Assembly (NCBI GenBank): GCA_017654855.1
Contig: CM030332.1
Span: 5,642,001 to 5,706,000, forward strand
Length of the DNA stretch: 64,000 bases
From: Podospora anserina
Taxonomy: Eukaryota
Direction of reading: 5' to 3'
The notes beneath the pieces were generated by a model. It was not told where the DNA came from, made no database searches, and worked only from the letters and a program-made list of their open reading frames with translations. The position numbers and the translations under genes were made by a program. Shown in pieces: positions 31,001 to 52,988 of this stretch (positions are counted from its first letter, which is position 1; each line of letters begins with the position of its first letter).

Positions 31001-31125
31001 GGGCGAGGCTGGTGAGGGATACCAAGGAGTTTTGGCGGACGATCGAGGCGGAGCAGGCGAGGAGGCGGGCTGGGTTGGGGCCACAGGGGGGAAAGAGGGT
31101 GGATAGTGACAAGTTTGTTGTTTAA
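28039..31125 (+). CDS. Fungal CorA-like (Mg transporter C-terminal domain) protein, multi-exon
   Basis: RWFHIPSNNMAWVE, PYLHWET, LHPRRTLHQ, LMVDQLWVFVLD, TVITSFPQRW, QGKSIMLFSVLSIIFLPLSFITSIFGMN and a second TM helix. Confidence 0.85.
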
Positions 31126-31234
31126 GTGTGGAAAAAAGCTGTACCATGGTGTATACGTGATGTTTTAACACCGGAATCTGGACATAATTCGCCACGTGAC
31201 TTCTCGCCGCTTTATCTGACTTGAATTAGGCGGA

Positions 31235-31409
31235 GCTCAGGACCGGCTCATCTTCGGCTCCAGCCCGCTCACCTCGCTCAGGGATTGCTCAAGGTCTGCT
31301 CACTTCGCTCAGGGACTGTTCAGGGTCTGCTTACCTCGCTCAGGGACTGCTTAGATTAAGATTTGCTCACCGTGCTCAGGACTGCTCTAGATTGCTCATA
31401 GTCTGCTCG
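31235..31409 (+). repeat. Left subterminal GCTCA array (~17 copies, mostly 9-11 bp period)
   Basis: GCTCA-like motifs start at 31235, 246, 257, 267, 276, 287, 298, 307, 318, 329, 338, 349, 365, 374, 384, 394 and 405. Confidence 0.9.
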
Positions 31410-31659
31410 CCCTACTAATGGTTCCCTCATTTACTACTGATGGTACTCTTACAAGCCTATTCTATAACGCTAGTCTAGGGATCTTTTAAAAGTGTTCTCT
31501 CGCAAGAAATTCGTGCTCTAGCAGCTTGATTTCGCATCTCGAATATCAAACCTATCACACTTACCAACCCAACCCGATGTCTCTAACAGCATACAGAATG
31601 TATAGTCAAGATACGTTACGTCTAGTCTATTCTAAAACTACCGCAAGTAATTTTCTCTA

Positions 31660-33521
31660 ACGTACATTATCAGTGAGTCGTGCATATCAGTGGGTCGCGC
31701 ACTCCCTAGCGCGACGCGTCCTCATTGCACTTTGCATCGAATTTTTCTACAATCCAATATGCCTTCTATTTTAAAGGAAGCGAGGGTAATCTTAGCCCTC
31801 GAAGCTCTCCAAAAGGACGAAAAATTAAGCCTCAGAGCCGCAGCTATGCTTTATAATATACCACCATCAACCCTCCGCGACCGACGCGCTGGCCGGCCTG
31901 CACGACGCGATACTACGCCCGGTACAAAGAAGCTCACTCAATCAGAAGAGGAGGCTATTGTCCAATACATTATTGAGCTATGTGCGCGAGCTTTTCCACC
32001 CAGATTACGTGGTGTGGAAGATATGGCCAACCAACTGCTACGCTTACGCGATGCGCCCCCTGTCGGCAAGCTCTGGGTATATCGATTTATTAAACGCCAG
32101 CCAGAGCTCCGTACGCGTTTTACACGTAGATACGACTACCAGAGGGCCAAGTGCGAGGATCCAAAGGTTATTAGCGAGTGGTTCGCGCTTGTGCGGAACA
32201 CTAAGGCCAAGTACGGTATTGTAGATGACGATATCTACAACTTCGACGAGACTGGGTTTATAATGGGTATTATCTTCGCGGGCATAGTAGTTACGACCTC
32301 GGACGGCCTTAGTAAGGCGAAACTAGCCCAGCCTGGTAACCGCGAATGGGCAACGGTAATCCAGGGAGTTAATGCCCTCGGTTGGGCCATCCCTCCTTTT
32401 ATCATCTTAGCCGCGCAGTACCACCTTGCCAACTGGTATACCGAGTGCAACCTACCGTCCACCTGGCGTATCGCAACCACCGATAATGGCTGGACTACCA
32501 ATCCGGTAGGTCTAGATTGGATCAAGCACTTCGATTACTATACGGCGCCCCGGATAAAGGGTAAATACCGGTTGTTGATCCTCGACGGCCACGAGAGCCA
32601 CCACTCGACCGAATTTGAGCGCTACTGCCAGCAGAATAACATTATTACGCTCTGCATACCTCCACATTCTTCACACTACCTCCAACCACTCGATGTCGGC
32701 TGCTTTGGGCCATTGAAGCAGGCGTACGGCCGCCAGATCGAGGACTTGATGCGTATGCATATCAACCACGTAAGCAAGCTCGAGTTCCTCTGTGCCTTCC
32801 GCGAGGCCTTCTTCGCCTCTATAACGGAGAAGAATATACAGGGTAGCTTTGCGGGTGCTGGCCTTGTACTATACGATCCAGAGAGGGTACTTTCTAAGCT
32901 AGATGTAAAGCTTCGTACGCCAACACCCCCATCCTCAAGGCCGGGCACGGCACTCCCTTGGCTCTCCCAAACACCACACAACCCTCGAGAAGCTACCTCA
33001 CAGTCAGAGCTTATTAAAACTCGGATATCAAACCACCAGGGTAGCTCTCCAACATCTATGTTGGCTGCTGTGGATCGATTAGCTAAAGGTACGATAACTG
33101 TAATGCACGAGGTGGCTCTTCTACGTATGGAGCTCTCGGCACTGCGAAAGGCCAATGAGGCACTTAGTAAGAGACGGAGAGCCAAAAAAACACGTGTGAG
33201 GCTTGGAAGGTCACTTGCCGTACAAGAGGCACAGGATCTACTGGATCAGAAGGCTGTGGGTGAGCAGGTAATCCAGGAAAATCGACAAAGTGGTGGTGGT
33301 ACAGGGGGGTCTCGTACGAAGACTCAGTGCTGTGGTATATGCGGCAAGCCTGGCCATAATGCACGCACTTGCCAGGAGGCTGCAGAATCATCTGATTCAG
33401 CTGTTTCTGATGTAATTGTAGTTAATTCCTAATGTTGGTGTGTTATAATCGAGGGTAATTGTAGTAGGGTGGTAGAGAGTGCGCGACCCACTGATATGCA
33501 CGACTCACTGATAATGTACGT
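31660..33521 (+). mobile_element. Full-length Fot1/Pot2-type pogo DNA transposon (1862 bp)
   Basis: Perfect 45-bp TIRs (31660-31704 and 33477-33521, ACGTACATTATCAGTGAGTCG...) and a TA target duplication at 31658-31659 and 33522-33523. Confidence 0.97.
31759..33432 (+). CDS. Fot1/pogo DDD transposase (psq HTH, CENP-B HTH, DDE_1, C-terminal CCHC), 557 aa
   Basis: YNFDETG, LILDGHESH, LQPLDVGCFGPLK and CGICGKPGHNARTC; open frame from the ATG at 31759. Confidence 0.95.
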   Translation: MPSILKEARVILALEALQKDEKLSLRAAAMLYNIPPSTLRDRRAGRPARRDTTPGTKKLTQSEEEAIVQYIIELCARAFPPRLRGVEDMANQLLRLRDAPPVGKLWVYRFIKRQPELRTRFTRRYDYQRAKCEDPKVISEWFALVRNTKAKYGIVDDDIYNFDETGFIMGIIFAGIVVTTSDGLSKAKLAQPGNREWATVIQGVNALGWAIPPFIILAAQYHLANWYTECNLPSTWRIATTDNGWTTNPVGLDWIKHFDYYTAPRIKGKYRLLILDGHESHHSTEFERYCQQNNIITLCIPPHSSHYLQPLDVGCFGPLKQAYGRQIEDLMRMHINHVSKLEFLCAFREAFFASITEKNIQGSFAGAGLVLYDPERVLSKLDVKLRTPTPPSSRPGTALPWLSQTPHNPREATSQSELIKTRISNHQGSSPTSMLAAVDRLAKGTITVMHEVALLRMELSALRKANEALSKRRRAKKTRVRLGRSLAVQEAQDLLDQKAVGEQVIQENRQSGGGTGGSRTKTQCCGICGKPGHNARTCQEAAESSDSAVSDVIVVNS

Positions 33522-34292
33522 TATAGGCTGCAGCCTTAGGCGCGTAACATTACAAGTCGGAGATCTTTGCCTTTCCAAGATACTAGAGCAGTTCTCGGAA
33601 GTAGAAACACGCATATACCTAGAGCCGTGTTTAGAAGTCACTCAACTCTGCAGATATTAAGAATTATAACAAGGAGCCAGAAACGGCTTCTAGTTATAGT
33701 ATACAGACCCTGTCTATTGGTTTGGGGTGCGGCCACAGGCGTGAGGGTATGAGTAAGGAAGTGGGGGTCTCTGGGGGTTCAGGGGTCATGTATATAAGCG
33801 GTCTGCTTCTGACATTCTATTTTAGACAGGACATCGACTTTTATTTTCTTCATATTTTGTGCCGTGCACGCGTGTAGGCAATTCCGGCTCTCTGATCAGG
33901 CCAATCCGGTGCTTATTATGTGGCCTGCGAGCCCATAGTGTCTTTTCTTTGTCCTGCGTGAAGTGCGGCCTGCGAGCGAGCCACTGTCACGCAGGTGTGG
34001 TCATTCAGGGACCTGTTGATGGTATATTTGTGGTGTTGTGGTTGTTTTTGTGTGTTTTCTCACCATTTCACTATAGTTCTATACTTAATTATTATTTTTA
34101 TCCTTATACTAGAGTTATAATACGATACTTCGCATCCTAAATTAACGTCCTAACAGCCTAATTTATTTCTTCTAATAATCTTTTTCTTTACTATACCTTT
34201 TATTATATCTAACCGTAGCCAAAAATCAAGTCATCGCCAATTAAACTGAATACAGTATCAATTTCCACACTAACTAACTACCAAACTAGCCA

Positions 34293-35380
34293 TTACACGT
34301 CACCTTCCATCGCTTGCCGGGCCTTGGCACTGGGCTTCGCCACCCGACCTGTACGTGTTCTAGTAAGTGCCGTTGAACTGGGCTTAGTTGAACTGGGCGC
34401 AGGTGTACTGGCCGGCGTACTGCTTGCAGCTGCTGGTTCCCGCTGTGTGGCCCTGGGTACCCGTTGCCTGGCACCACCTCTGGCACCACCTCTGTTGCCC
34501 CTGGAGCCCCTGGATTTCTGGTTCGCCCTGGCAACGGCTTGTTCAACAGTGCCCAAACCGTTCACTGTGGCTGGCCGAGATACAGTTGTATTTGCAGCAT
34601 CTGCTGCATCATCGCCTTCCAGATCTGCAGCTTCCCACTGGGACGCTGTTCGCCTTAAACTTTGCCGCAGATCTGTCGTACTGGGAAGTTGAGGGTTGGT
34701 TCTTTGTATGCATGGGGGTGAAGGGGTAGGTGTTGGTTGGACCTGAAGGCCCAGTGGCACTGTTGACCTGGGTGCGGTGGCATCAGGGGCAAAGGCATCA
34801 GAGCCCCTGGGTCTGCACCTGAGCACCGTCACACGGTCAAAATCCTGGTACTGCAAATACCGGTCCTCGTCAACTAACGACCTTTCCAACCACCAAAAAG
34901 GATGGAAATCCTTGAGCTCAAGGACCTGGTTGTTCTTCTGTACTTGGTGAATCAAGTGAAGACAGGGAAGTCCCTTATTGGCAGTGAATCTACCTGTACA
35001 AGCAGGAATCTCGTCGGGTTCGGGATTGCGGGCAAACACCTTGTACTTCTGAAGCTGGCGACAGTGTTGTACTACACTGTCAAGTGGTTTCCAGGCAATT
35101 CTTGTAGGGGTTTCGCCCAGAAGCTTCATACCCATGAAATCCCTCCGCAAGTGGTCCTTTTCAAAGCGCCTGGCTTCATTCACATTCTTCTCCATGACGG
35201 CTACCATATCAAAAGTACGGTCAAAAACATCCTTGACCGTGCTCTTCCCAGTGACAACGAAGCTCTTGAGCATGCGGTTCGAGGACTCCACGGGGGAGGT
35301 TGTTCGTTGACCGAGGGTGAGGTGTTGAGATGTGTAAGCAGTGGCCCATTGCCGGATGACTGGGAAGTAGGTGGATTTCT
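34293..35380 (-). mobile_element. Mutator (MULE) transposase C-terminal fragment; N-terminal/catalytic part missing
   Basis: Frame reads TYFPVIRQWATAYTSQHLTLGQRTTSPVESSNR, then SWIM-like CTGRFTANKGLPCLH and DFHPFW. No upstream DDE region, and I could not define TIRs. Confidence 0.75.
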
Positions 35381-36082
35381 GGTGGTTTCACGGCGTGGAA
35401 GATGAAGAAGAAAAGGTCGTTGCAAAGTGGTGGTTTGGTTTGAAAGCAAAGGTTTGGTTGCAGGTGGGTTTGACTGCGAAAAAGGTGTATTGCAGTGTAT
35501 TGCACGTAAAAGAAAAAGAATTGGCCAGGGTTAGGGGTTTGTACGGGAAGAAAAGTGGGCGGGGGGTCCGGGAAGTGAAACTGGGGGGTCCGAAAAGTAT
35601 TGCTCTTTCGCTTTGCAACCTTGCCTTGGCGAGCAATAGTGTCAAGCTGCAACTCCACAGTAGTTAGCAAAGGGCGAGCATTACTACAATCCCGGACTCT
35701 TTTGCTTGTATTACAAATACGTCTGAGCTCCCAATTGATGTGCGGGCATCGTATCCTGCATCTCTAGTGTATATAGAGGTTCCTCTACAGCCCTTAACGG
35801 CCCCCAATAGCGAAGACTAGATGAAGCTTTAGTTCCGAAGGTCATTGTTTGTTAGCCCAAAGATGACCTCATGTCATAGCAGCAGGCTTTCCGATATGTG
35901 ACGTTTGCTTGCCGTCGGGGAATGATAAGCAGAAGTCAATGCCTTTGCTGTTGAGCGTGGGCTTTCAACTGCGCGATTCGAACAAGATGCGATCATACTA
36001 TTCAACGAGTGTATTGTTTGTATCTGAATCTCTCTAGTGACCACGTCCTGCTACCCAGTTTGAATCACCCAGATTGAGAGCT

Positions 36083-37080
36083 CTACTCCTTATACGGAGG
36101 CTCATCCCTCCTTATCTGGGGAATCCGATAGGTAAGGAATTTAGGAAGGGCCTTCATTGGTACCTCGCCGCAGCCTACTTTTCCATCCTCCCAGAAAAAG
36201 GTGTTTAAGAGCGTGCCGAGAATAACGGCATCCTGGACGAGACCGATATTCTTCTCCAACATCTCACGAGTCTTCTGGGACATCCCAGCAAAAAGCTCCT
36301 TCCAAAAGGCTCGCTCAGCAACCTCGAACTCGTCCGGCATCCAGAACTCGCCCCCCGTATATTCGCCAGCCAGGGTGTGAATGCGGCCAAGACCCACAGC
36401 AAAGGGTTTCGGCGTCGACAACTCCCAGTCGATCAGGCCGGTAACTTCACAAGTTTCGTCGATCAGGATGTTGACGTCGTTGAGGTCGTAGTGCGAGACC
36501 CAAAGCGGCAGCTTGCTAATCTCGTTCAGCTTGCTAAGAAATCCTTGTAGCAAGGGCCGGTATGCTGCGACTTCATCCAATGGGCTGGCTAGTATGGCCT
36601 CAAGATGCGGCCGGATTTTGGTTGACACAGCCTCGCCACTGCTGTCGGCAAGCCAGCCCTTGGAGAGTACACGCCCGAGCGACCTGTTGACGGCAATACG
36701 GCCTTCAGCGCCCTTGCCGGCGACGCCGTGGATCCATATCTTTCCCGGCAGACGCTCGAGGGAGTAAACCCAGACGCCCTCGTTCTCCAGCTCTTCGTCT
36801 TTGAGAGCCACAGTATCGGGGACGACTTGGCCCAGGGCGCCTTTGGCTACCCTGAAGGCGTCGAGATCCAGTTTCTCGGTTCGGAATTGGATGACCACTT
36901 CGCGTTTGTCAGTCAGCGTTACAAAGAAGGTCCGGCTGAACATCCCCTGCATTGGCGGCCTGTCGACGCGCGTGGAGGCGCTTCCAAGATGCTCTGACAC
37001 TAGATTCTTGATACGCTTGACTTGTTTCGTTGGCGTGTTGAGCAACTTGGGAGGTCATTGTCGGAGGTAACGGGAGGCAT
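36083..37080 (-). CDS. APH-like phosphotransferase / protein kinase-like protein; start uncertain (ATG 36952, or ATG 37080 with a frameshift)
   Basis: QGMFSRT, VIQFR, LPG, HYDLNDVNILI (catalytic loop) and GLIDWE (metal-binding). Confidence 0.8.
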
Positions 37081-38251
37081 GATGTAAAATAGAATGTTTG
37101 GCGTGCAAAGCGTAGCTGTAGTTGGGCAGGTTGAAGTTGCGGTTGACCGAATGTCGAGATTTTAGGAGCGGCCTTTGCTTCCCCCAATTGTTTGCAGGTA
37201 ACCCCCCAAACGCGGTGCCAGATCGGGGGAGAGAGCCAAAAATGCCGTAAGAGCAAACCTGCCAATCGGATCAATCCGCACCCAGTAGCGGTCGCGTCAC
37301 GCCAACAGGCCGTTGCACAACTTCCCTTTCGGTAAGTTAATCTGCGTGTTGGTTTCAGACATCAATACATGGGCTGCATCAGACCCAGTGCAACTGCTAT
37401 CAAGCGGATGTTCGTACTGTTCGAAGGCTGGAAATTCGAGCGTGATTATCGTTCGTCACACTGTCAGTGACCATGAAGGCGCATAGTATTGAGGGGTAAC
37501 TGCACGTCGTAGGCCAATGGATCAAAATAAGGCAGCCAACAATGTCAGGGTAGTTATTAGAAGAAAATTCTTGGTCTGGCAGGAAGTAGACTTGTAACGG
37601 AAGACTCTTGCCTATCTGCACACAAGCCAGCCCTAGGTAGATATATATATATATACAGAGTAATCTCAAAATATAGTATATCGGTATCTTCTTAATCCAG
37701 AGAGATATAGATCATGGCGTTTGCCTCAGATTGTAGATAGCTTCTTTCTCTTCATGGACTTCTCGAGGCCATTGAAGATTATTGTGAATATACTCAGTTA
37801 CGCCCTCCGGGCCAGTGCTTGGTTCTAGTCTCTGCTGTGTGAAGCTCGTTGAGCCTGCCCCACAACAGACCCTTGTTACACATGAAGACAAGTTGCAGCG
37901 ATACGTAGATACCTGGTAATGAAGAACCGCACTGATAAAGCCTCCCGAGACTGAGAATCCTGGGTTCTCGACAAATCAGCTGCAAGAACGGCCAACAAGA
38001 TCTACTGGTATCAATATCCTCGTTTAATTGTCGAATTAAAATACGTCAAAAAGCAAGTCGTGATGACTTGCCACGCTGGAAACGCCGGTTGTAACCTCAT
38101 ACGTCGACTTTACACAGTAATATTTGCACAGTAGCATCTGTACAGCAATATCTGCACAGCAGCATCTGCACAACAACATCTGCCCAAGCACCAACACTCA
38201 GAGGCTTATGGCGCATGGGAGACCGTCGGTGATGATCATGATCATGATCAT

Positions 38252-38605
38252 TGTGACAAGGGCTGTAATATCAGGGCTTGGAACTCATGGTTCAATTCAG
38301 GCTAATAATCTTCAATGGCCTCGAAGAGCGTGATACCGAAAAGAAGAAGAAGAGATACAGTCTTGGTGTTTCCAAACGCGTATTTTACCCTCCCTCGCGT
38401 GGCCCGTGCCTTTGTTGGCCTCAGGCCATCGCCAAGTCCTTCAATATCCTACTGGGCCAGTGGGCTTCCTTTGATAACCGCCATGCCTCTGATTGTCTGC
38501 CTCACTTTGAACGAGAGGCTCACAACTTGCAGTTACCCCTCCTTGCGGTGGTATCGACAGTGTTGTTGGTTGTGGTTACAGGTGGGTGGCTTTTGCCGTG
38601 TGACA
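38252..38605 (-). repeat. 3' LTR (354 bp)
   Basis: Appears identical to 44839-45192 by eye; adjacent to the PPT. Confidence 0.97.
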
Positions 38606-41600
38606 CCATCTCCCCCCTTCTCATACTCGCCCACGAGCTTGGTGATGGCTTCATGCCTCGATACGTGAGTCCTTCGGTTTGTCAGGGTGCTGGGCGTGAA
38701 AGGCTCGTAAAGCCGTCTTGGCTCCGTCGCTGTAGAAGTGGTCGTAAGGCTCCCACGTCCAGTGTCTCCGTTGAGGCCAACCTTCCCACTTGACCAGATA
38801 CTTGACTTCTTCACCCATTGTGGTCGAATCCATCACCTTTTCCACTTGATAGTCTTCTGCCTCTACCGGCTCAGCTTCTCGCAGGACCTGGTCTGGATCA
38901 GGCAGTGCCTGTCCGCCAGCGCGATAGGGCTCGATGAGGGAGACGTGGAAGGTATTGTGGATTCGCCAGTGTTTGGGGAGAGTCAGTCGGACAGCGGTAG
39001 GCGAGATTACCTTCTGGATTTTGAACGGGCCTAACATCTTCTTATCCAGCTTCTTGGAGGGTCGACGAGTCTTAATATGCCTGGCGTTGAGCATTACCAG
39101 TTGATCCTGTTCAAACGAGGGTGCTTCTTTTCTCTTTAGATCTGCCCACTGCTTCATACGTTTGCGGGTGTCTTCCAGGGAATTCTGCGCTTCCTTGTGA
39201 ACTTGGGTCATCCAGTGGGCGTATAGCCGGCTTGAGGGGTTATGAACGGTGGTGTTCGACGAGGGGTTGTTGGAGGCAGGGTGGTAGCCATAGTTGGCGA
39301 AGAAAGGCGACATGCCTGTTGGTGCCTTACGGGCATTATTGTACGCGAATTCTGCTATGGGAAGTAATTTATTCTAGTTAGCCATCTCGTAGTTGACAAA
39401 GGCGCGGAGATACATCTCTAGTTCTTAGTTAACGATTTCCGTTTGGCCGTCTGTTTGTGGATGGAACGCCGTGCTTATACGGCTCTTGATACCGACGAGC
39501 TTCAGGAAATCCTTCTATAAGTGAGCAGTGAAGCGTGAATCGCGGTCTGAGATAATATCCGCTGGCACGCCGTGGAGCCGCCAATACTCGCGCGCGAAGA
39601 TCCGGATCAGGTCGTCAGTTTTCTTCGCTTCCACACGTAGAGGAATAAGGTGTACCATCTTCGTGAACATGTCCACGATGACCCAGATCGAGTCGCACCC
39701 AGAGGACAATGGAAGATCCGTAATAAAGTCCATAGAAATCGCTCTCCACGGCTTCCACGGAATCTCCATTAGTTGGAGCAACCCGAAGGTGCCATGGCGG
39801 GGGTTCTTGTTCTGTTGGCACTCCCGGTACCCACGTACGTATTCGCGGATATCTTGATCCATGCCTGGCCACCAGAAATTACGCCGTATAAGGTCGATAG
39901 TTCTGTCCATTCCCAGGTGGCCTGCGACGACGGAGTCGTGCTCAGATTCGAGGATCTCTTTTCGCAGTGCTGGGTCGCTGGGGATCCTTAACAGGTTGTT
40001 GTGGTACAGTAGACCGTGGTCCTCGTGCTCATTCTTAGGCGGTACTGCTAGATCCTTGGTATAGTCGGTATCTCTGCTAGCAGCTGTCTTGACCCGGGCG
40101 AGGAAGTCGTTGTTCCACGCCGGGGCGACTGGTATACTGGCGAGCCTCGCGGAAGAAACCAGAAAAGAAGGTCCTTCGTTTGGCGGTGAAAAGTGGTGAT
40201 TTTTTAGGACCGAAGTGATCGGCTGGTCCTCATCTCCCCCCTTCTCAGGCCGATACTGGTCGAGTCTTGAGAGCACGTCGGCCTTGCCGTTAAGTCGTCC
40301 AGGCCGATACATGATAATGAAGTTGTAGGCGGCGAGCTCTTACGCCCACCTTGCCTGGCGTCTATTTAAGACCTTCGCTGTGGTGAAGTATGCCAGGTTC
40401 TGATGATCGGAGTACACTTCGATGCGATGCTCTGCCCCCTCGAGGTATCTCCGCCATCTTACAAAGCAGTCGACTATAGCCAGTAGCTCTTTGTCGTATA
40501 CTTCATAGTTCATCTCTGGTTTAGTGAGCTTTCTAGAGTGGAAAGCAACCGGGTGGAGCTTGCTATCGTCCCCCTTCTGGGACATCACTCCACCCAGGGC
40601 GAAGTCAGACGCATCCGTCTCCAGGACCGCCAGCTTTGCTGGGTCGAAGTGAGCGAGGATGGGAGCAGTGGTGAAGGCCTCCTTGAGCCTGTTAAATGCT
40701 ATTTCCATGGCTTGTGTCCACTTCCACTGACGTACGTCGAGCTTCAGGGATGCCGTAAGAGCTTAGGCAATAGCAGAGAACCCCTTAATAAAGCGTCGAT
40801 AGAAGTTGGCGAAGCCGATGAAGGATTGGGTGGCCTTAAGTGTGGTAGGTCTCTCCCAGTTCAAGATGCAGTCTACCTTCTCCTTAGACATAAAGATCCC
40901 ATGCTCAGAGATGATATACCCAAGGTACTCAACCTGCCTTGTAGCCCACACACACTTCTTTACTAAGATGGTGAGGTTATTCTCTTTCAACCGCCGCAAT
41001 ACTTCTTTCGTAAGCCGGTCGTGCTCCTCCATAGTCTCGGCGTATATAAGGATATCATCAACGTACGCCAGTACCCCCATGTCGATCAGGTCACTGAGGA
41101 CTCCATGGACCATGGCTTGGAAGGTGGCTGGGGCATTGATTAGCCCAAAATGCATGACCGTGAACTCGAAGAGACCGTAGCGGCAGCGGAAGGCTGTCTT
41201 CCACTCATCTCCCTCCTTGATTCGTACGAGGTTAAATCCACTCTTAAGATCGATCTTGGTGAAGTACTTAGCTCCGGCAAGACGATCTTGTAGCTCATTT
41301 ATGAGTGGTAGAGGATACCTGTTGGGGATGGTGATGCCATTGAGTGCTCTCCAATCCACCACTGGTCGAAGGTCGTCTTCATACGTTCCCTTCTTCTCGA
41401 TGGAGGCGTCTTTATCCACCATAAAGAGTGGAGCGCTGCAAGGGGACTTGGAAGGCCTGATCTTGCCTTCGGCCAGCATCTCATCCAGCCATACGCGCAG
41501 GAACTTAAGCTCTTTGCCGCTGAGGGAGTAGATAGGCCCCCATGGTGGTGTCTTGCCATCCATCAGGTCGATCGTGTGGTCCCAGGGCTTATGATCAGGT

Positions 41601-44600
41601 AGCCTTTTGGATATATCATGAGGGACTAATGGTGCCAGATCCCGGAAGCGTTCGGGAATAGAGCTTCGATCGTCCTTAACGCTGGAAATGATCCTACCAG
41701 CCTTCCCAAGTACCGATAGGCTAGTGCATCGTTCGCGGCATGTGGGAGAGGTAAATACAATCTTCGTGGGGTCTTGGTCGTAGAAGCCAGCTGGTTGGTG
41801 TTCTTGGAGCCACCAGTGTGGTAAGATAATATCGCATTCTACGTCGAACTTACTAACTTCGAATTACAACTTAGTAAAGTGGTCTTCTAAGTGCCTAAGC
41901 ACCACGGTGTCGGTGTACAATGCTTCCTTACTGGCATCTCCTTCTCCAGTAAAGGATTAAAGGTAGAACCCAGGAGGGTAACGGAAGGTCTTGATCGCGA
42001 GGCGGGTAGCCACATCCTCCGATAAGACGGGAACGGCACTGCCAGGATCCAAGAGAACGCGTACCGGGTGTTCCCGAGGGCGCGCGTTAGTACCTTCGAT
42101 GATGCTCATGCTAACGATAGGCCTGGTCCCCACCTTAGGCCGGTGTCGTGGTTGTTCATCTTCATCCTCTTCGCGAGGGCGCTTGACTCCTGCAACGGTG
42201 ACGCCAGTAGGCCGATTACATCCTGTCGGCGTGGTCAGGCGGCCTAGTGAAAACCCGTCTCAGTGCCAGACATATCGTCGTCAAGTACTTCGAAGACCGG
42301 TGGTTTATTATCGTCAATATGTACCCCAATAGCGTCGATTCGTACTTTCTTTGGAGGTGCTAATTCGTTTTCTTTCTCTTTCTCCTCGGCCTTCCGCTTG
42401 ACCCCGGCTACCTTGGGAGGAGCCGCGGGAAGATCGTTACCGGAGATATCCTTTCTGGCGAAGTAGGCAAGGGTGTAATGATTGTTGCGGCCACATCGCC
42501 AGCATATAGACCCATCCTTTTTATATCTGTCGACGTTATCTTAGGAGATTCCCGCTAATACCTCTTTCACGGTTGCCCACTTAATGTCCTTTGGATCGGG
42601 TCTGCCGCTTAGAGCCTTGAAGGGTGCCTTGCTGCTTCTTAAGGATGGATTTGACGTTTGTTAGGAGCGACTTTGGTGGGGAGGGCCCGACTTCGAGCGC
42701 TCCGAGATCGAAGTGGGCGTGTCTTTTCCCGCCCGGTGGCCAACTGAGATGCTAGGGTTGGTGAGCATATTCTCGTAGATGTGGCCAGCTTCCTGGATGG
42801 CGTGGAGGAAGTCCTCGTCTGTCTCCGGGACGCCTCCCTGTCTTAAGTAGATCAGTTTGGTGATCTCGTCCGGAAGTGCCTTCGAGATATGGCTCTGGAA
42901 CGTGGTTCCTGACCACTGGACTACCTCGTTGAGGTCCATGAGCTCGGTCAAATACTGCGAGATATCTCCTTGGTACCGGAGCTCTTGCATCTTGCGGGCG
43001 TTGCGGTACCTCTCGGCTGTATCCCGAAAGCGTTCTTGGATGGCGGTGGTGTAATTGCTCCAGACGTCCACCAAGCCTAGCCTTCGCACTTGGCTGACTC
43101 GCTGTTGGTGCCATACCTGGGCTTTGTCGGTGAGCAGAGATCCAACCCAGTTAATCCTGACCTGGTCGGTGGGGAACCCTGTGGGGTAGGAATCCATATA
43201 TGCTTCCACCTTGAGCCACCAAGACCTGAATTTGGAGAGATCTCTACCATCGTAGGCTGGGGGCTTTGCCATATGCACCGGATTGACTTGGACTGGTGCC
43301 TGAGAAAATTGACGAATGAGTCGAGTGAGGTTATTTCGGCCCGAGGGACTGGGTGATCGAGGGCGGTTGCGTGAGGCTGGAGGTCCCCTAGGTGGTCCTC
43401 CTCCGGCTCCGTCCGCGGGTGGTCGCCTCTCCTGGTGATCCTCGTGGGAGTCATCTGAGTCCGAGTCGTCAGGGTCCGAAGGTGGTTCCCCGTTAGTAGC
43501 GACGAATCGTCGTGGGGGGAGGCTTCCTCCTCCGCCACCGTTGGGTGTGGGCGTCATGTACATGGGACCGGCTCGAGAGGACTCGAACTGGATATTGGCT
43601 TGTCGAGCTGTACGGCGTGCCTGGGCATCTTGTAGTGCCTGGGTGGTCAAGCGCTCTCGCACACGCCGAGTTGAGGATGATACCTTCGATGGTACTGCTA
43701 CCGACGGTTGCGATGGTCGCGTAGATGCTCGTTGACTAAGGCTACGCTAAACGGAGTCGATGTCGGCATCGGGGTTCTGCTTTAGCTGCGTGCGGAACTC
43801 CTCTAGGGCTTCTTCCGTCAGTTTTTTAACCTGCTCTATGACGGTTCGGCCGTGTTTATCCAGTGTAGAGGGGTCAACGAATTTCTTTGCCAGAAGTCCA
43901 TCGATGTGTTGGTCGCGTTGGAGGGCCCAGATCTCGACCTGCTTATTGAACTTCTTCTGGTACGTAATCTCCTTCTCGAGGGTTAATAGAGCCGCTTAAT
44001 GACGTTTAGCAGATTCCCGAAGTTGCTCAATAGCCTGCTGCCGCTGGCGCTCATCTTGGGTAATGACCGCGATAGCTCCCCAGATCTCGTCCGCGAAGGT
44101 AGTACTGGCGTTTTCGACTTGCTGCCGGAAGTGCTGGATCTGCTGGTCTGAAACTTGGACCCCGAGCTTGACCATATTGGCGCAAATAGTGTATTGTACG
44201 CGGATATGCTCGTACTGCTGCTTAAGGCGTGCGAGCTCTTGGCCGTCAATGCGGTCTTTGTGCTGCTATTGAGCAAGTTGTCGTACACCCTCATAGGTCT
44301 CGCTCATACGGCGATGGAGTTCGACGATCCAGGGTGCTGGATCATGAATAGCACCAGGCAAAGGCTGGATATCGGTGGGGTCGCTCATAATGGCTTCAAA
44401 GTCCTGAGGCGAGTAGAGTGTAAGCTCCATGTGGTCGTTGACCTGAATAGGCTCGGCTGACGGGGAGCGATAGTCCGACATGTTGTAGGTAGAGATAGAC
44501 GCGTTGTCGAGTTCTTCTTGTAGATTTCGAGCGGTCGCGTGCGTAGGTAACGTCGTGGCTGGTGATGTCGGGAGAGGAATATGAGCGGCGTAGCCGGGAA

Positions 44601-44838
44601 TGAAGGGTCGCGGAGTAGGCGAGGCGTTGAAGGAGTATTCTCCTATAGTGAAGTCGGAATCTTCGTCGTCGTCAACCCAAGGGTTACACGGTAGTGGAAC
44701 GAATCCTTCAACGATATCTGAGGGTGGAGCTGATGATGATGTGGTGGACATCAACAAAGGAAGAAAGCGGGGTAAGTGGCGATAGCGCTATGGCGTCGTA
44801 GTGTAGTAGTTGTTGTCTTCGATTGTTTGAAGATTATA

Positions 44839-45192
44839 TGTGACAAGGGCTGTAATATCAGGGCTTGGAACTCATGGTTCAATTCAGGCTAATAATCTTC
44901 AATGGCCTCGAAGAGCGTGATACCGAAAAGAAGAAGAAGAGATACAGTCTTGGTGTTTCCAAACGCGTATTTTACCCTCCCTCGCGTGGCCCGTGCCTTT
45001 GTTGGCCTCAGGCCATCGCCAAGTCCTTCAATATCCTACTGGGCCAGTGGGCTTCCTTTGATAACCGCCATGCCTCTGATTGTCTGCCTCACTTTGAACG
45101 AGAGGCTCACAACTTGCAGTTACCCCTCCTTGCGGTGGTATCGACAGTGTTGTTGGTTGTGGTTACAGGTGGGTGGCTTTTGCCGTGTGACA
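44839..45192 (-). repeat. 5' LTR (354 bp)
   Basis: Appears identical to 38252-38605 by eye; followed on the minus strand by TATAATCTTCAAAC at the PBS position. Confidence 0.97.
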
Positions 45193-46058
45193 ATCATTGA
45201 AAGCCAAAGTACCAACAATCACAGATACAGCCTGTATAGCCTGGCCGCCCTGTGGAGGACCGTTCAGTGGCACTTTGGACTGCCTTGCGCCCTTAGCGAG
45301 GCATAGAGTACTCAGGGCTTCCTTGTCCAACAGGACACTTTAGTATAAAGACCTCTGGCTCATCCACCTTGCCCCGACTCTCTCCTTTCAGAACCGTTAC
45401 TGACTATCTTGCCTGATCAACGACAACTTTCTAACTCACTACAACTCCAGTTTGTACTGGAATTGCCTATTGCCCTTAATACTTACATCTGTTTCCCATT
45501 TTTCTGAGCTAGAAGCCAGCTTCGCCCTCTTCAAATCAAGTCCCGATCTTTGCAACCCAATCATTCATCATGTCTTCGAGTCAACTACCACGGACTGGGT
45601 CGCAGACCAAGAGTACGCGCAGTACGCTGACGGCTCAGTCCCGGGTATCATCCAGCTCAAGTGCACCACGACACGCAGCAACACACACTACAACGTCACT
45701 TGCAGCACGACTCGCAATGGTAGTCACCTGGGACATGCTCCGAGCCCGTTTCCGGAGGCCCCGGCGGACTCTGTGCTCACCATTAACGGTACGCCTGTGG
45801 AGGAGGGAACTAAATCGCATGCCATCATCTCCCACGCCCTGAAGATGGTTGACTTCGTGTACTAGTCCATCTTCTGACGTATTGATCACTCGAGGTCAAG
45901 ATGTTGTTCTTGAAATCCAGTTTCGTCTGGATTTCTGTTCAACTCCATTTGACAATCTAACTGGCATCGGGTTTCAGACATTAGCTACCGCTATCCTTGG
46001 AAGTCTACCACAAGGTTGTTTCCTTGGCCTTTCTTAAGTAGTTTAGCTGAATATTTCA

Positions 46059-47509
46059 TTATAAACTAGTATAAAGATACCGGTACTGTGACGCGACGCA
46101 ACTGCTGTCCACTAGTATATCACTACAAGCTGGATTGTAAGAGTTCGATCTTACACTTCTGACACCCTTTTGAGTAGTTTGCGCAGTGGTATTGTGGGTC
46201 ATTGTGTCATTTCTTACTCTCTTCCGCTCTGAGCAATCCTGTCCCAAGCTGGGTGTTTTCCACCGCAGGCGGGGCACCTGCAGGGTATGCGGCTGGTGTG
46301 AATAGGGCACTGTGCCTCACCCTCCTTGCCTCCCACTCCATGTGCATTTGTGCCACACCTCGGACATAGAGGGTCTTTTCTGCAACGGTAGCTGATGTGG
46401 CCCCATTTCCAACACCTGTAGCACTGGGTGGGACGCAGTGGGGCCCAGTATGGCTCGCAGTTGAATATCTGAGCCCTGAATACCACTCCCGAATCGCAAG
46501 CCTGCTTGGCTTCTGTTTGGTTGGTGAGGATGACGAAGATTGATACCCATTGTAGAGTTTGGTCTTTCGGGTATTGAAATTTGACCCTTTCGATCGACTT
46601 GAGTCCTAGTTCCTGGCCGAATTCCAATTCTGTGGTTCCTTGGATATTTGATTTATAGACTCCTTTGACCAATATGGCAAAGGTTCTTCGAGCTTCTTTC
46701 GCCTGTTCTCCGAATGCTTGTTGTATCCATCCTTTATTCGAAGAGTGCCAGTCTCTGGTGGCTGGATCTGCAAACATGATTACCGTATCACCGCTGGGCA
46801 GCTTTCGGGCAGCTACTGCTCCCTTCCCACTGGAGGCTTGGTTGATGGCTTGTACGGCTTCGAGGGCATTGCGCTTGGCCAGGTCGGATGGTATGTCGTT
46901 TCCTTTGATCAGAATCTCCCGGCTAAGTCTGGCAGGAATTACTTTGGCTGGTTGGTTCGGTGCTGGGGTAGTTACTCCCTTTGCAATATCGGCCCAGGTG
47001 CGAGTAGGTTGAGTAGATCTCGTTGGTTGGGTTTCGCGGAGTGCTGCTCTTACTTCCTTGGCGACTATTTTTCGGAGGTTGAGCAAGGAGGGAGTTTGGT
47101 CGATTCCGGTAGAGGTTGCTGCTGCTGTAGTAGCCTGTCGGTAGGCATCCTGAGTCTCTTTGGCTAAGCTTTGAGCTTTGTCCTTGTTCTCCGTCGGTAT
47201 AAGGGTGAGGAGGTTGTTAATTAGGGTATTGAAGGTCTGGTTGGTTGGGTAGTTTCTGGAGCTGTGGTTGGTCTGAGCTTGTTGGGTGACTGGGGGAGTT
47301 TCTTCGGTTCTGTCCGCTACGTTGGCTTGCTCTCTGGGAAAGCTGGCTGATAAAAACATCGGGCATTTTGATATCAGGCCTGTGGGCTTCCATTGAGGCA
47401 GTTGAGAGTAGTTGGTAAGGATGTATGTGGCTGGTAAAGCTAGGGGGTGGCTGAGAGTGTTTGGTGGTGCGTGCTGCCTGGGTTCGCTTATCGATAAGGT
47501 CAGCAGCAC
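46059..47509 (-). mobile_element. Tad1-like LINE ORF1 (gag) remnant with zinc knuckles; frameshifted, no ORF2
   Basis: RTWADIA, AARKLPSGD, QCYRCWKWGHISYRC, CPRCGTNAH and CPACGGKHPAW, with a frameshift into CSERK. No endonuclease or RT downstream. Confidence 0.8.
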
Positions 47510-47973
47510 GGACCTGTTGTCGACGCGGAGGAGGAGCGGTTGGCGACGCGGTGTTGAGCTTGAATTCTGAACCTTTTTTGCAGCCCCGCGACGGCCGCCG
47601 CGGGGCTAGAGTTGGTATCTTTCGATGGAACTTTTCGAGAGGATTTGATTAATGTAGGTTGCAGCTGTTTTTCCGGCCCCGCTGGCGAGCACTTCCAGTA
47701 CAACGGTATTTATATTCACTACTAATAAAATATATCTCTGCAACCTGCAACCTAGTCCAACCCTACTGCCAGTTGTCCCGATGCTAGATCCTCTCTGCCA
47801 CCAACGCATGTGCTCACCTGTGACAAATCATCCTTAGTCCCAACGTGTCAGATTACCCACAACGAAAGTGCCAGAAAAGAAGGGTACGGATTGGTTGTCA
47901 GAATAGGGCCTGAAAGTGATGCCTGGCAACGATCTGAGTCCATGGCCTCCAGCTATTATTAGTTGACCAAAAT

Positions 47974-48008
47974 TAGACTGAAGGAACAGCCTAGACTGAA
48001 GGAACAGC
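47974..48008 (+). repeat. Tandem duplication TAGACTGAAGGAACAGC x2
   Basis: Copies at 47974-47990 and 47992-48008. Confidence 0.85.
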
Positions 48009-49302
48009 TGAGCCGCTGAAAGGATAAGCTATGCGTCCAACTAAAGGTCTATAAGGGAGAGAGGTTCAGCCTCGATCACAGGAAGAACACAGAATACACA
48101 ATCAATTTTGGACAAGTGTGTGTGCAAGTGATCAAATCCAACACAACGCAAAGCCGTTTCTGGCTCAACCAACAGAAGGGATGCCGGATATGATCCTTGT
48201 AATACTACATCTGCCCTTGTCAGATTGCAAGGTAGCCTTGCAAAGCCAAGCTCCCGGTTTGGCATGGTGTTCCTTGCAAGGAGTCTAAGCGCCAAAAGTG
48301 ACTCTGTGTGTAGTTGGCTAGGAGCTAGTTTTGGAGGTGGATGACGTCCACCTGTAGTTTAAGATCGTGCTCTCAGAGCTGCTTCGAGAGCCAAACCATA
48401 CTGTAAGAATCTGGAAGCGTGGTTTCATCCACAGTACAGACTTGTTGTGTATAATTAAAAGCCATTTATGGCTTCAATAGAGGCAGCGATTCCCTATGTT
48501 GCCTAGGTCAAAACGTAGAAGCTGTTGTGGCTCCAGCAAAGGCAGATCATTACTGCCTACATAGGCAAAATGAAAAAAAGCCGTTTCTGTAATAGGCTAA
48601 GGTAGTGTATTGCAACTAGCTATGCCTTCGCTACGAAGACGCGAAACATGAGAAAGAAAGAAGAGAAATAAGACCTCGCGGGCGAGTACTCTCTAGATAC
48701 ATATGATTGTCTTGGTCCGAGCAGAGGGAGGTGAAAGGTTCCAGAGGTGTCAGTGCGTTACTGACGTTGGCTGGCGCTTGCGCAACACACGAAGTGGAAT
48801 AGGTTCATCAGGGGTTGTCGGTGGGACTACTCCTCACCACTCCCGGGGCTCAGCCCGTTACAGTTTCTGGCTTTACCAGAGGCTGGGACTTCATTTCATG
48901 ATCCTAGGGCTGCCTTAGGCTAAATGATTCGCACATAGAAGCTGTTTCTGTCTCCGCAAAGGCAGATATCCTTGTTTTGGAAACAATCCAAGTTTTCGGT
49001 GATCCCGGATGCAGGAACGATATTTGGAGGGAGACAACTTGCCTGATTTGGACTAACTTAGAAACTGTTCCTGGGGTGGATGCTACGCTGTATGAGATGT
49101 TTCTGACTCTAATACAGACATAACTTTTACACTAATCCTAAAGGGAATAACTATTAGTGCAGCTAGGGTTATTTTCTAGCAACTTCCACCAAAAGCCCCC
49201 TGCAGCGCTAACAACAATTACCGTGTAATAGGTGTACGCTCCAGAAACAGCTCTGCGATGGTCTACCTCCAGTATACCTGGTCTCAGGTGGTTTCAACCA
49301 TT

Positions 49303-49441
49303 GCTCACCCTACTCAGGGCCTTGCTCACCCTGCTCAGGCTTTGCTCACTCTGCTCAAGGCCTTACTCACTCTGTTCAGGACCTTGCTCACCCTGATCAG
49401 GAGATCTCCACTTCTGCTCAGGTTAAAGCGGCGAGTGCTCA
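49303..49441 (+). repeat. Right subterminal GCTCA array (~12 copies, ~21-bp two-motif unit TTGCTCACCCTGCTCAGG)
   Basis: Motifs start at 49303, 312, 324, 333, 344, 353, 365, 374, 386, 395, 416 and 437. Confidence 0.9.
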
Positions 49442-49757
49442 GGTCCAAGAACGGAAATGGAAACGATCCATGTCCAGATTCCGATATTATTATAGGTGTT
49501 ATAAGGCGCATGGAAATGGGTTATCAGGTAGAAATAGGGTTTGGGCATATACCAGGAGTAATTAAAGAGTACATATTGCATAATAATCACATGAATTAAG
49601 TACTCATTTCATTCCCAATTTTCCAATGACATGTCATGCATTGATCGATAGATTTCACCGCATCACCAAGGCTTTAGAATATAGTGGTTTCGACCATCTT
49701 TTAAAGGCCCTTAAGATCTCATGGGAGTGTCTATTTCCCCGTCCACGGTGTGAACGC

Positions 49758-50869
49758 CTATTTTGGCCGGACACCAACAACCTCCCCCCTCATGCAAACC
49801 ACCTCGCCCCTTTTGACCACCAGTCTGTATCTTATTGTCTCCCCATTACCTTCCTCCACAGCCTCCGTCCCAATGGTGTACTCCTCCTCCGCATACAGCG
49901 GTGACAAAGCTCGGTAAGCAATACTCTTCGCCTTGATTGCCCCATCCCGTGAGTGAACATCCCGCCAGTAATTCATCAGATTAATCAGATTCAAGGGCCC
50001 ATGCACAACCACATTCGGGTGACCCTCCACCTGCCTCGTCCAGCTTTCGTTGAAGTGGATCATGTGCGCGTTGAACGTCAGGGCAGAGAACTGAAACAGC
50101 GCAACAGGGGACCAGACAAGATTGCGCATGGTATACCCTGCCTTTAGATCTGTGTCATCCTGAATATGGGACTTAGTGGTGGGTATCGTAATAACTGGAG
50201 CGATTGAGCCAGTAGGCGGTGCAGGTAGTGGTTGGCGGAAGATCCATGATCTGGGGGTCCGTCAGCAAATTGGATAGCAACAAAAAAACACTATGGCTGG
50301 GCACGTACGTACCTTCTGTCAGTAAGAGCTACCCCCCGAGGAGAAGCAAATATCTTTTCCACATCCACCAACACCATCTCACTCCCATCACGGCTCTTCT
50401 TCGCTTTGGCATCGAGAATCTCGGTGGTTTCCTCTACTCTGTCTCCTATTCTCAGTTGCACCTGTGGGTTCCACAGCATCTCCCCTCCAGCCCACATCCT
50501 CCTCGTGAATGGGGCCGGCGAGTTAAATGTTGTGTCTGACCCATCCGCTCCTAGCTCTGACTCGAACTGGGAGGGGGTGAAGTACACGAGGTGGTGACCG
50601 TAGGGAAGGTAAGTGCCGTCTGGTGGCTCCCCCGTGCAGAATTCTGATCGTCGGCCCAAGGTAAGAGACAGCTTCTGGAGTTGGTTTCCATCAAGAAGCT
50701 GTTTGCGGACGAACTTTTGACCTTTGACTTTCTTCAACAGCTCACTGGCTGCGGTCTGGGCGGCGGAGGTGTGGATGTGACGGGTGGAGGCTTGGCAGGA
50801 GGTGGTCATCATAATCTGGCTGGCTAGAATGCGGCGGGTGATGCGCGCGGGGTGCTGGAAAAGAGCCAT
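49758..50869 (-). CDS. Double hot-dog hydratase (HTD2 / mesaconyl-C4-CoA / itaconyl-CoA hydratase-like), likely mitochondrial; intron 50251-50312
   Basis: PYGHHLVYF, LGADGSD, PFTRRMWAGG, DRRSWIFR, LFQFSALTFNAHMIH and VVHGPL; Arg-rich presequence. Confidence 0.9.
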
Positions 50870-51158
50870 TTTCCAGTGGTCAAGAAAACGGACAAAAATG
50901 CCAGGGCCGATGTCTACTCACTGTTCATTCTCAAACACCAAGGTCCGTTGGTGATGTCGTTGATCAGATGTCAAAAGCGGAACCCCTTCCCCGGAAATAA
51001 TAGGGGGCGCTAAACTGGGTGCCTCGGTGGGGTCCACATTCCCCGCTTCCCCAGAAAACCGTTGTGCAGTCCATCAACAACAAGAACGACAGTGCGAGAC
51101 TGGAGATTCACATTGGCGCTTCTCGATAGTGTTGAGCTTTCAATTCCCTGACTTCACA

Positions 51159-52466
51159 ATGTCACAGTTAACCCTCCGCATGATCACCCGGTTGACGCGC
51201 CTGGCTTCCAATCACCGGCCGGCCCGCCATCAACTGTTCTCCACCTCGGCCAGGCGCCCCCTGATGTCAACAACAGGCTTCACCGAAACACAGCTCACCG
51301 TTCGAGAAGCAGTCGCGCAGGTCTGCTCGGAGTTTCCCAACACCTATTGGCAAGAACACGACCAGAATGAGCAAGATCCCAAGGAGTTCCATGCTGCCAT
51401 GGCCAAAAACGGCTGGCTCGGGATTGCTCTGCCAGAATCTCTTGGCGGATCCGGATTGGGAATATCTGAGGCCACCACGATGATGCAGACGATTGCGGAG
51501 TCTGGGGCAGGAATGGCGGGCGCCCAGAGCATACACGCCAATGTCTATGCTACACAGCCGCTGGCCAAGTTTGGGAGCACCGCCCAACTCGAAAGCACCA
51601 TTCCGAAGATCATTTCAGGCCAATGGCGGGTTTGCTTTGGGGTGACTGAGCCGAACGCGGGACTGGATACGCTGAGACTGTCAACCAGGGCCACGAAGCA
51701 GAGCGATGGTTCTTACAAAGTGACTGGGCAAAAGATCTGGATCACTTGCGCTCAAGTGGCCTCCAAGATGATTCTGTTGGCGCGAACCACACCGCTGGAG
51801 GAGGTCAAGAAACCGAGCGAGGGGCTGTCATTATTCTGCATCGATCTTGATCGTAGCAGCCCAGGTCTTGAACTCCGACGAATCAAGAAGATGGGCGGAC
51901 GGGCTGTCGATGCTAACGAGGTCTTCTTCGACAACTATTCGGTTGGTGTCGACTCGTTGATTGGCGAGGAAGGGCAAGGCTTCAAGATTATCCTGCATGG
52001 CATGAACGCTGAACGCTGCCTACTCGCCGGCGAGGCTCTTGGTCTGGGGTATGCTGCTCTAGGAAAGGCGGCAACGTATGCTAGAGAACGCAACGTCTTC
52101 AAGAGGCCAATCGGACAGAATCAAGGAATCGCCCATCCGCTAGCAGAGGTATACATGAAGCTTGAGGCGGCGAAGTTGGCAACGTATCATGCTGCGCAGT
52201 TGTATGATTCGAGCAAGGCCGATAAGACGATACGTCAAGATGCGGTGGGTGTGGCTTGCAATAGTGCAAAGTATCTGGCGGCCGAGGCAGCGTTCTCAGC
52301 GTGCGAGAGAGCCGTGTTGACGCATGGGGGAATGGGTTACGCGGTCGAGTATGACGTCGAACGGTACTTTCGAGAGTGTCTCGTGCCGAGGATTGCGCCC
52401 GTTAGTCGAGAGATGATTCTGAATTATATCAGTGAAAAGATTTTGGATCTTCCACGGAGTTATTGA
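51159..52466 (+). CDS. Acyl-CoA dehydrogenase, likely mitochondrial, intronless
   Basis: GWLGIALPESLGGSG, CFGVTEPNAGLDT, GQKIWIT, NEVFFD, GMNAERC, FKRPIGQNQGI and HGGMGYAVEYDVERYFRE. Confidence 0.95.
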   Translation: MSQLTLRMITRLTRLASNHRPARHQLFSTSARRPLMSTTGFTETQLTVREAVAQVCSEFPNTYWQEHDQNEQDPKEFHAAMAKNGWLGIALPESLGGSGLGISEATTMMQTIAESGAGMAGAQSIHANVYATQPLAKFGSTAQLESTIPKIISGQWRVCFGVTEPNAGLDTLRLSTRATKQSDGSYKVTGQKIWITCAQVASKMILLARTTPLEEVKKPSEGLSLFCIDLDRSSPGLELRRIKKMGGRAVDANEVFFDNYSVGVDSLIGEEGQGFKIILHGMNAERCLLAGEALGLGYAALGKAATYARERNVFKRPIGQNQGIAHPLAEVYMKLEAAKLATYHAAQLYDSSKADKTIRQDAVGVACNSAKYLAAEAAFSACERAVLTHGGMGYAVEYDVERYFRECLVPRIAPVSREMILNYISEKILDLPRSY

Positions 52467-52988
52467 AGCTTCGGTGGTGTGCTGCTGGTAGTCACCAGGT
52501 CGTCACTCCGCCTGCTGGTGGGGGACTTGGGTGGCCAGTGACCTCACCCGCTAGGCAGACTTGGGCTGATTGAACCTTCTTATTCTAGATGAGTGTTCAA
52601 GTGGTTTCCCTCACCGGTCAATCGATGCCAATTTTCAGGAGTCTGGTGTTTTACAATTGGTCTTTTAGTTCATGTGGAGCCGGTGGTGGTCTAGAGCATG
52701 ACGGGCCGAGTCGTCACTTGCTGCGAACGGTAGGCAACAAAGGCGACTTGAAAGTTTACCGAGGCCACCATAGTTTCTTTGAGACGATTTTCTTTGATCT
52801 GCACTCTTCACCTGGTCAACTCCCCAAACTCATGTAAAAAATCTTCGACTATACATGAGCGTTAAGACATACATCACAGCCCTGCCGAGCAAACTTGGAT
52901 CCATGCGCCAGCAACGACCAAGAATCTCTCTCTGCGAGTATTCAATTACAGCCGCATCCAGAGTCAAAACAGAGTCGCGCATTTAAAC

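Follow-up and report, generated by a model that had tools for sequence, protein, structure and literature searches.

What kind of element produced the 18.3-kb island at positions 31161 to 49504 of a stretch of Podospora anserina DNA, and how did it get there? The stretch (the window) comprises 64,000 nucleotides of contig CM030332.1 and corresponds to C1:5642001-5706000 in a 36-Mb, 9-contig assembly, whose contigs are denoted here by C and a number. The original prediction, made from the letters of the window, described a non-autonomous derivative of either a Starship-like or an unclassified large cargo element. Starship descent is borne out by ends homologous to those of Enterprise-family elements that carry a captain, the tyrosine recombinase of Starships, and the unclassified option is not needed. 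We consider it very probable that the island is what remains of a single insertion of a Fonsecaea-type Starship of the Enterprise family, now immobile and captain-less. On the best reading, this remnant represents a second Enterprise-family lineage in Podospora, distinct from the Enterprise that carries Spok.

The island is bounded by two blocks of inverted repeats, all of which lie in the window sequence where the original prediction had placed them. A perfect 14-bp outer pair (31172-31185 and 49470-49483) is accompanied by a perfect 12-bp inner pair (31203-31214 and 49424-49435), and the gap between outer and inner blocks is 17 bp on the left versus 34 bp on the right. An 8-bp direct repeat with one mismatch (7/8; 31161-31168 and 49497-49504) lies 3 bp from the 14-mer on the left and 13 bp from it on the right. 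The outer terminal inverted repeat (TIR) is longer than the 14-mer, extending over at least 19 bp (31167-31185 and 49470-49488) with 17 of 19 positions complementary. Since the last AA of the left 8-mer is also the start of the TIR, the direct repeat has TGT as its common core. By itself, a perfect 14-bp inverted pair is unremarkable (mean 10.3 per dinucleotide-resampled 64-kb sequence); the compound 14 + 12 arrangement occurs once in the window, exactly at the island ends, and in none of 40 resamples. The end repeats are real and not due to chance. Inside both ends lie arrays of GCTCACC/GCTCAGG units, which the first reading had overlooked. GC content does not mark the island within the window. 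The named proteins most closely related to a flank gene come from Podosporaceae. The left-flanking gene, whose 'CorA-like' product has a weak Pfam match (E 0.37), has its stop codon ending at 31125, 46 bp before the 14-mer, in agreement with the distance of about 45 bp given earlier. The features of the two ends are as follows.

31161 to 31168, plus strand: left direct repeat (TGT core, three variable nucleotides and the first AA of the TIR), the captain-proximal boundary
31167 to 31185, plus strand: left outer TIR block, 19 bp, resembling the 'up' TIR of the F. pedrosoi Starship and the ends upstream of metagenome captains
31193 to 31214, plus strand: CACGTGA box and inner 12-bp inverted block
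31235 to 31420, plus strand: left subterminal GCTCAGG/GCTCACC array
49301 to 49422, plus strand: right subterminal GCTCACC-N-GCTCAGG array with a 21-nt period
49424 to 49435, minus strand: right inner 12-bp inverted block, whose AAAGCGGC core is present in 9/9 right ends
49470 to 49488, minus strand: right outer TIR block, 19 bp, resembling the 'down' TIR of the F. pedrosoi Starship
49489 to 49496, plus strand: variable 8-nt spacer between the right TIR and the direct repeat, with G first in 8/9 right ends
49497 to 49504, plus strand: right direct repeat with TGT core, probably the host target side

The same ends occur at no fewer than 12 places in the genome with unrelated flanks, and the flanks of the island matched none of the end-family loci compared. 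Searched against the genome, the left 400 bp of the island gave 7 matches, every one a left end, and the right 411 bp gave 16, made up of 9 TIR-bearing right ends and internal pieces. Paired copies, which the original prediction had proposed to look for, do exist: four co-oriented left-right pairs span 18.3 kb in the window, 31.5 kb on C8, 8.8 kb on C7 and 5.3 kb on C2, and they enclose different interiors. On C1, a fifth left end is accompanied, at a distance of 12.7 kb, by a right subterminal remnant. The opposite outcome named at the outset, that the ends occur only as independent unpaired repeats, describes just part of the family (3 left and 5 right ends). The copies are diverged, with end identities of only 74-85% and C-to-T and G-to-A changes of the type produced by repeat-induced point mutation (RIP). 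Identity nevertheless drops sharply at the boundaries: it is 83% inside versus 30% outside the left end, and at the right end it runs from 83% in the TIR through 39% over the final 5 nt of the spacer and 69% in TGT to 28% beyond. Of the 7 left ends, 5 have TGT 3 nt ahead of the TIR, the others having TAT and TGA; of the 9 right ends, 6 have TGT 8 nt beyond the TIR, one has CGT, and two with a common flank lack it. A genome-wide search with the 15-nt TIR pattern gave 42 hits versus 14 for a control, and 11 of the 12 exact hits are known ends; no further end homology was found at the 12th (C3:1137965) or at the 17 examined of the other 28 one-mismatch sites. At C3:1137965 the exact 15-nt TIR core is followed with right-end spacing (8 nt, then TGT), by chance or as a more distant end type.

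hAT and CACTA elements typically combine TIRs with subterminal repeat arrays, and two DDE-type sequences lie inside the island: a fragment like a Mutator-like element (MULE) transposase and a pogo-like gene. Either of them could in principle be the transposase of a DDE-type cargo transposon related to Mutator, hAT, CACTA or pogo. However, in none of the four paired copies do the TIRs abut a duplication, a point against a DDE transposon; the pogo-like element is bounded by TIRs and TA flanks of its own; and the same ends precede captains in other fungi. We regard such an origin as extremely unlikely.

Evidence linking these ends to captains comes in part from outside Podospora. Rows S1, S4 and S7 of Gluck-Thaler and Vogan (2024; PMC11162782) describe Fped_Starship1 of Fonsecaea pedrosoi, an element of family 6 (Enterprise) with captain fonped1_6568. 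Its direct repeat, tgttat, abuts the 'up' TIR acgaccggaatctcgacgc and lies 9 bp from the 'down' TIR gtgtcgagattccgacct, and the captain is 517 bp inside the 'up' TIR. The window copy shares with it a TGTTAT-type repeat, a closely similar outer TIR of 18-19 nt with a CCGGAATCT core and an identical spacing on both sides, TGT being 8 nt to the left and 13 nt to the right of the CGGAA/TTCCG core in both elements. This comparison concerns the outer TIR only, as the published rows list neither an inner block nor arrays. The two differ in that Fped_Starship1 has 86 kb, a captain and a resolved empty site, whereas the window copy has 18.3 kb, no captain and no empty site that was found. Among the other elements with a TGT(T) repeat looked up in the same source, two belong to family 6 (Aspergillus niger and Fusarium sporotrichioides), one is unassigned, one is of family 5 and one has no family listed; in both family-6 elements the right gap computed from the published rows exceeds the left gap by 5-6 nt. 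A profile of 26 lineage captains detected 22 metagenome loci, 8 of which extend 380 bp or more upstream of the captain match. In 4 of these 8, TGTTT, a CCGGAATCT block, a CACGTGA box, a CGCCGC-TTT block and a GCTCAGG array are found 514-561 bp before a near-full-length captain. The CACGTGA box and the inner block align across 6 genome and 4 metagenome left ends with some substitutions. Judged by this sequence homology, the island ends are Starship termini, homologous to the ends of captain-bearing Fonsecaea-type elements of the Enterprise family.

The original prediction saw no DUF3435 recombinase in the island, and neither did we: tblastn with 150 captain-like proteins gave no captain match in the window copy, and a six-frame translation of the right subterminal region contained no captain remnant. 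The recombinase expected between paired ends is likewise missing from the window copy, but sister copies on C8 and at C4:326k retain captain relics, both on the element's strand. Searches with the Podospora captain Kirc and the F. pedrosoi captain P0286 revealed an N-terminal relic that starts 1.4 kb inside the left end of the C8 copy and a middle-to-C-terminal relic just before the right end at C4:326k. The sister-copy relics have their closest match in an F. pedrosoi captain: the C8 relic shares 52% identity with P0286 versus 22% with Kirc, and relics of this lineage as a whole are 22-27% identical to Kirc. In a tree of 37 rows, the C8 relic and P0286 fall in a 100/100 clade of 25 rows with Kirc outside; the C4 relic groups likewise, away from Kirc, in a C-terminal tree built by a quick method only, and each of the two trees omits 4 rows that lacked overlap. 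A third broken captain of the lineage (C1:5939139-5940232) lies inside the Enterprise block and has short DNA in common with the C8 and C4 copies. No left end was found upstream of the relics at C4:326k, C5:1.535M and C1:5.939M (within 20 kb for the last). A captain of the Fonsecaea-type clade is linked to these ends as broken relics, in the C8 copy and at C4:326k only. A broken captain fragment with a chromodomain at C5:1533710-1535411 belongs to the same broad clade and has no family ends nearby.

Standard captain annotation does not reveal this lineage. A genome search with the Pfam DUF3435 model returned 4 matches at 2 unrelated loci, without end motifs within about 10 kb, and reported neither Kirc, whose C-terminal frame fell below the cut-off, nor the relics. 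Captain counts based on this model are therefore too low for the Enterprise family. A published table gives two captains for P. anserina S, of families 1 and 9 (PMC11162782). Genome searches for Phage_integrase and for DUF3504 (Crypton) gave no match, and the control genomes likewise had none for DUF3504. While captain-based annotation misses the lineage, its ends provide a captain-independent probe that can be used across fungi.

The interior of the window copy contains the following features, nested elements (the pogo/Fot1-like transposon, the solo LTR and the Gypsy element) making up about 9.2 of its 18.3 kb (LTR, long terminal repeat; ORF, open reading frame).

31660 to 33521, plus strand: nested Tc1/mariner (pogo/Fot1-like) transposon with its own TIRs of about 50 bp and TA on both sides (DDE_1, E 3e-30; HTH_Tnp_Tc5; HTH_psq)
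33711 to 34070, no strand given: solo LTR of a high-copy retrotransposon, borders approximate, 92% identical to a 364-bp LTR pair inside the C8 copy
34293 to 35387, minus strand: fragment similar to the C-terminal portion of Mutator (MULE) transposases (Atlas neighbours at 0.92-0.94, SWIM/MULE domains on a minority of members, no Pfam hit)
36083 to 37080, minus strand: APH-family kinase-like cargo gene (PF01636) with a frameshift near codon 10
38252 to 45192, minus strand: nested Ty3/Gypsy chromodomain retrotransposon with two identical 354-bp LTRs and a 5-bp target duplication, ATCAT; stops interrupt its ORFs
46214 to 47605, minus strand: ORF with zinc-knuckle motifs, no Pfam hit, 98% identical to part of a P. 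pseudocomata gene model
48153 to 49300, plus strand: right subterminal region, in pieces 70-85% common to sister copies, without captain match or long ORF

The pogo/Fot1-like transposase frame is open (31651-33432, 593 codons) and the TIRs are 96% complementary, suggesting that this element may be recent and still competent; its read depth is 15-50 times that of the flank. It occupies the position expected for the start of the captain and is not the mobiliser of the island. The depth over the solo LTR is 100-230 times that of the flank in the runs that yielded contigs. The APH gene is a probable pseudogene, judging from its frameshift. It is 89% identical to a 332-aa protein of Triangularia verruculosa, its nearest named relative is in Podospora pseudocomata, and a paralogue on C5 is 68-70% identical. 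The ORF with zinc knuckles is presumably a fragment of ORF1 (gag-like) of a long interspersed nuclear element (LINE), a label taken from the motif. A small ORF at 45404-45865 has no Pfam or Atlas match. The right subterminal DNA common to sister copies amounts to about 1.3 kb. The claim that all transposon content of the window lies between the ends is supported as far as the 17 long flank ORFs go, none of which has a transposon Pfam family; these ORFs cover the flanks in part only.

The sister copies carry other genes. NACHT-HEAT and DUF6601 are found in the C7 copy, a TPR-repeat NLR-type gene, DUF6601 and a hydrolase in the C8 copy, and a ferric reductase and HET in the interior at C1:1.82M. 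NLR and ferric reductase genes are among the types typical of Starships (PMC9156397).

Four copies of 5-31 kb that keep both ends and the subterminal arrays around unrelated interiors could also be true non-autonomous Starships, which lost the captain first and then, as short elements, moved in trans, taking different host genes at different times. A captain acting in trans has been reported to move a mini-element with a broken captain (PMC10104507), and the genome carries a long open Kirc frame. However, Kirc is distant from the relics and uses RGGTAG ends, no intact captain of this lineage is found among the 18 best-scored genome matches, the divergence of the ends indicates no recent movement, and the island is present in all informative sequencing runs. 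We therefore think this history quite improbable. Given that neither an interior nor a deletion junction is common to any two copies, we favour decay after insertion over spread in trans. In its boldest form, which we consider unlikely, the idea would make these copies the first natural non-autonomous Starships of a defined family, needing only the bipartite end (outer TIR, inner CGCCGC-TTT block and GCTCAGG arrays) and moved in trans each with a different host gene (kinase, NLR, ferric reductase). Were this true, their junctions would expose the recombination geometry, with a circle joint TIR-N8-TGT-N3-TIR and a G-N6-C-TGT target, and would suggest the design of a minimal cargo vector.

The island looks old and fixed. 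At least 94% of the sequence words of 45300-55200 are present in each of the 20 indexed runs listed, in a search that favours runs containing them. Contigs from runs X9 and X13 cross both junctions without a gap, run X21 has even depth and no listed joint between the ends, and run X22 gave only 20 reads. In P. pseudocomata, a single gene model comprises both the LINE-like fragment (98%) and the APH gene (94%), and at least this portion of the interior therefore probably predates the species split. In the Gypsy interior (38834-44734), the X9 and X13 contigs differ from the window at 86 of 5,901 positions, all rows listed being transitions, compared with 0-7 differences in unique island DNA; this reflects either lineage-specific RIP or a different copy.

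An old island might instead have been assembled from two separate insertions, or by rearrangement, with one end on either side of resident host DNA and a transposon cluster. Unpaired ends are indeed common, conservation of the APH gene in related genera (86-89%) is of a level that a resident gene could show, and the informative runs offer no empty site. Against this, the window has one left and one right end, co-oriented and sharing a 7/8 direct repeat, and there are three other such pairs; given some 16 ends over 36 Mb, two of them would hardly lie co-oriented within 20 kb of each other by chance, unless the two have a common origin. The APH gene, moreover, is damaged here and has a paralogue elsewhere. 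Independent arrival of the two ends is in our view very unlikely.

The evidence thus favours a remnant of one Starship insertion, which may have come about as follows. By analogy with Starship biology (PMC10104507), the ancestor would have carried a tyrosine-recombinase captain about 0.5-1.4 kb inside its left end, and its joined ends would have recombined with a short TGT-containing host site 35 bp behind the left-flanking gene. Such an insertion would leave a short direct repeat and no true target duplication. The junctions suggest that the joined ends read TIR - 8 nt - TGT - 3 nt - TIR, with strand exchange at or next to TGT, and this geometry would explain why TGT is 5 nt nearer the left than the right TIR. 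In the left flanks, G is found at position -8 in 7/10 and C at position -1 in 8/10 (binomial 0.004 and 0.0004 against 0.25), in a small sample and at positions that were suggested by the right-end spacer; the preferred host target would be G-N6-C-TGT. After insertion, the captain would have been deleted, smaller transposons inserted and the cargo gene decayed. From their conservation in sequence, we guess that the inner block and arrays may be captain binding sites. The element cannot now move by itself.

Several observations weigh against this interpretation. The empty site predicted to join about 31168 to about 49505 with one repeat copy was not seen in any of the three informative runs (X9, X13 and X21), all of which are occupied; the boundaries are therefore defined by end homology alone. 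The profile of lineage captains, run on six frames of the window copy, scored only the Gypsy chromodomain, and a Pfam scan of 13 island ORFs found no DUF3723, FRE, PLP or NLR. No cargo is common to the window and sister copies. The DUF6601 genes of the C7 and C8 copies were considered as shared cargo and rejected, being only 27% identical, as were the APH genes of the island and C5, which are not close. P0286 is probably the captain of the published F. pedrosoi element, to judge from species and size. Of the four positive metagenome loci, three belong to one assembly (two of these three have different flanks), and the other four of the eight show no clear end: one has only a GCTCAGG array, one has only 383 bp upstream and two have nothing. 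Finally, the target consensus is drawn from 10 flanks, and the direct repeats of the three other pairs match at only 6-8 of 8 nt.

The remnant can be compared with several described systems. The Podospora Enterprise and its Spok block (Vogan et al. 2021, PMC8092012) belong to the same genus and captain family, and that paper reports bufo and schoutedenella ends scattered as insertion relics and a shrunken 5.5-kb Enterprise copy in P. comata that keeps both ends. As described there, however, Enterprise has an RGGTAG repeat and no TIRs, in contrast to the TGT core and bipartite TIRs found here, and the present relics fall outside the Kirc clade. Derelict or degraded Starships (Gluck-Thaler et al. 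2022, PMC9156397) are similar in that the captain is lost, other parts persist and smaller transposons colonise the element. They are defined in that account by at least three of DUF3723, FRE, PLP and NLR without DUF3435, whereas the window copy has none of these and is recognised by its termini. The Starship hallmarks that the window copy does retain are short direct repeats at both boundaries and short TIRs nearby. Since it has no captain and does not fit the cargo-based criteria for degraded Starships, we class it as a remnant and not as a Starship. In the Hephaestus family (Urquhart et al. 2023, PMC10104507), too, the short direct repeat arises from matching ends and target and not by duplication, and its TTAC(N7)A site, like the G(N7)TGT suggested here, has one extra conserved base 7 nt from the core. 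Unlike the present element, Hephaestus, a different family with a different core, is experimentally mobile and excises cleanly, according to the same report. Unequal gaps between direct repeat and TIR have been published for Tangerine (PMC13486527). No description of this lineage in Podospora was found in the literature searched, including PMC10787394, PMC12506042 and two preprints, with repeat libraries and supplements outside that scope; the ends may already be named as unclassified repeats.

These results indicate that Podospora once saw a second Enterprise-family lineage spread through its genome, leaving at least 12 sites, some with NLR-type and ferric-reductase genes. The 5-nt offset and the proposed target would predict the form of a circular intermediate, which, according to PMC12506042, has been shown for no Starship. 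As an inert relic, the window copy has modest direct biological impact; its value lies in the end architecture and in testable predictions of joint and target.

A few further observations concern other members of the end family. The right ends at C1:5795452 and C1:6035075, which lack TGT, face outward 240 kb apart and have the same flank; the former lies about 0.8 kb past the Kirc frame, so that a piece of this lineage seems to be carried near each border of the Enterprise block. An unpaired left end in the region from C4:3903617 onward is about 5 kb before biotin-synthesis genes (radical SAM/BATS and aminotransferases I/II and III), which may be host or cargo. Close inside many family copies, though not in the window copy, there is a repeat of about 200 bp that often forms inverted pairs. 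An ORF with an NPP1 (necrosis-inducing protein) domain lies no more than 8 kb inside the unpaired right end at C1:5375203.

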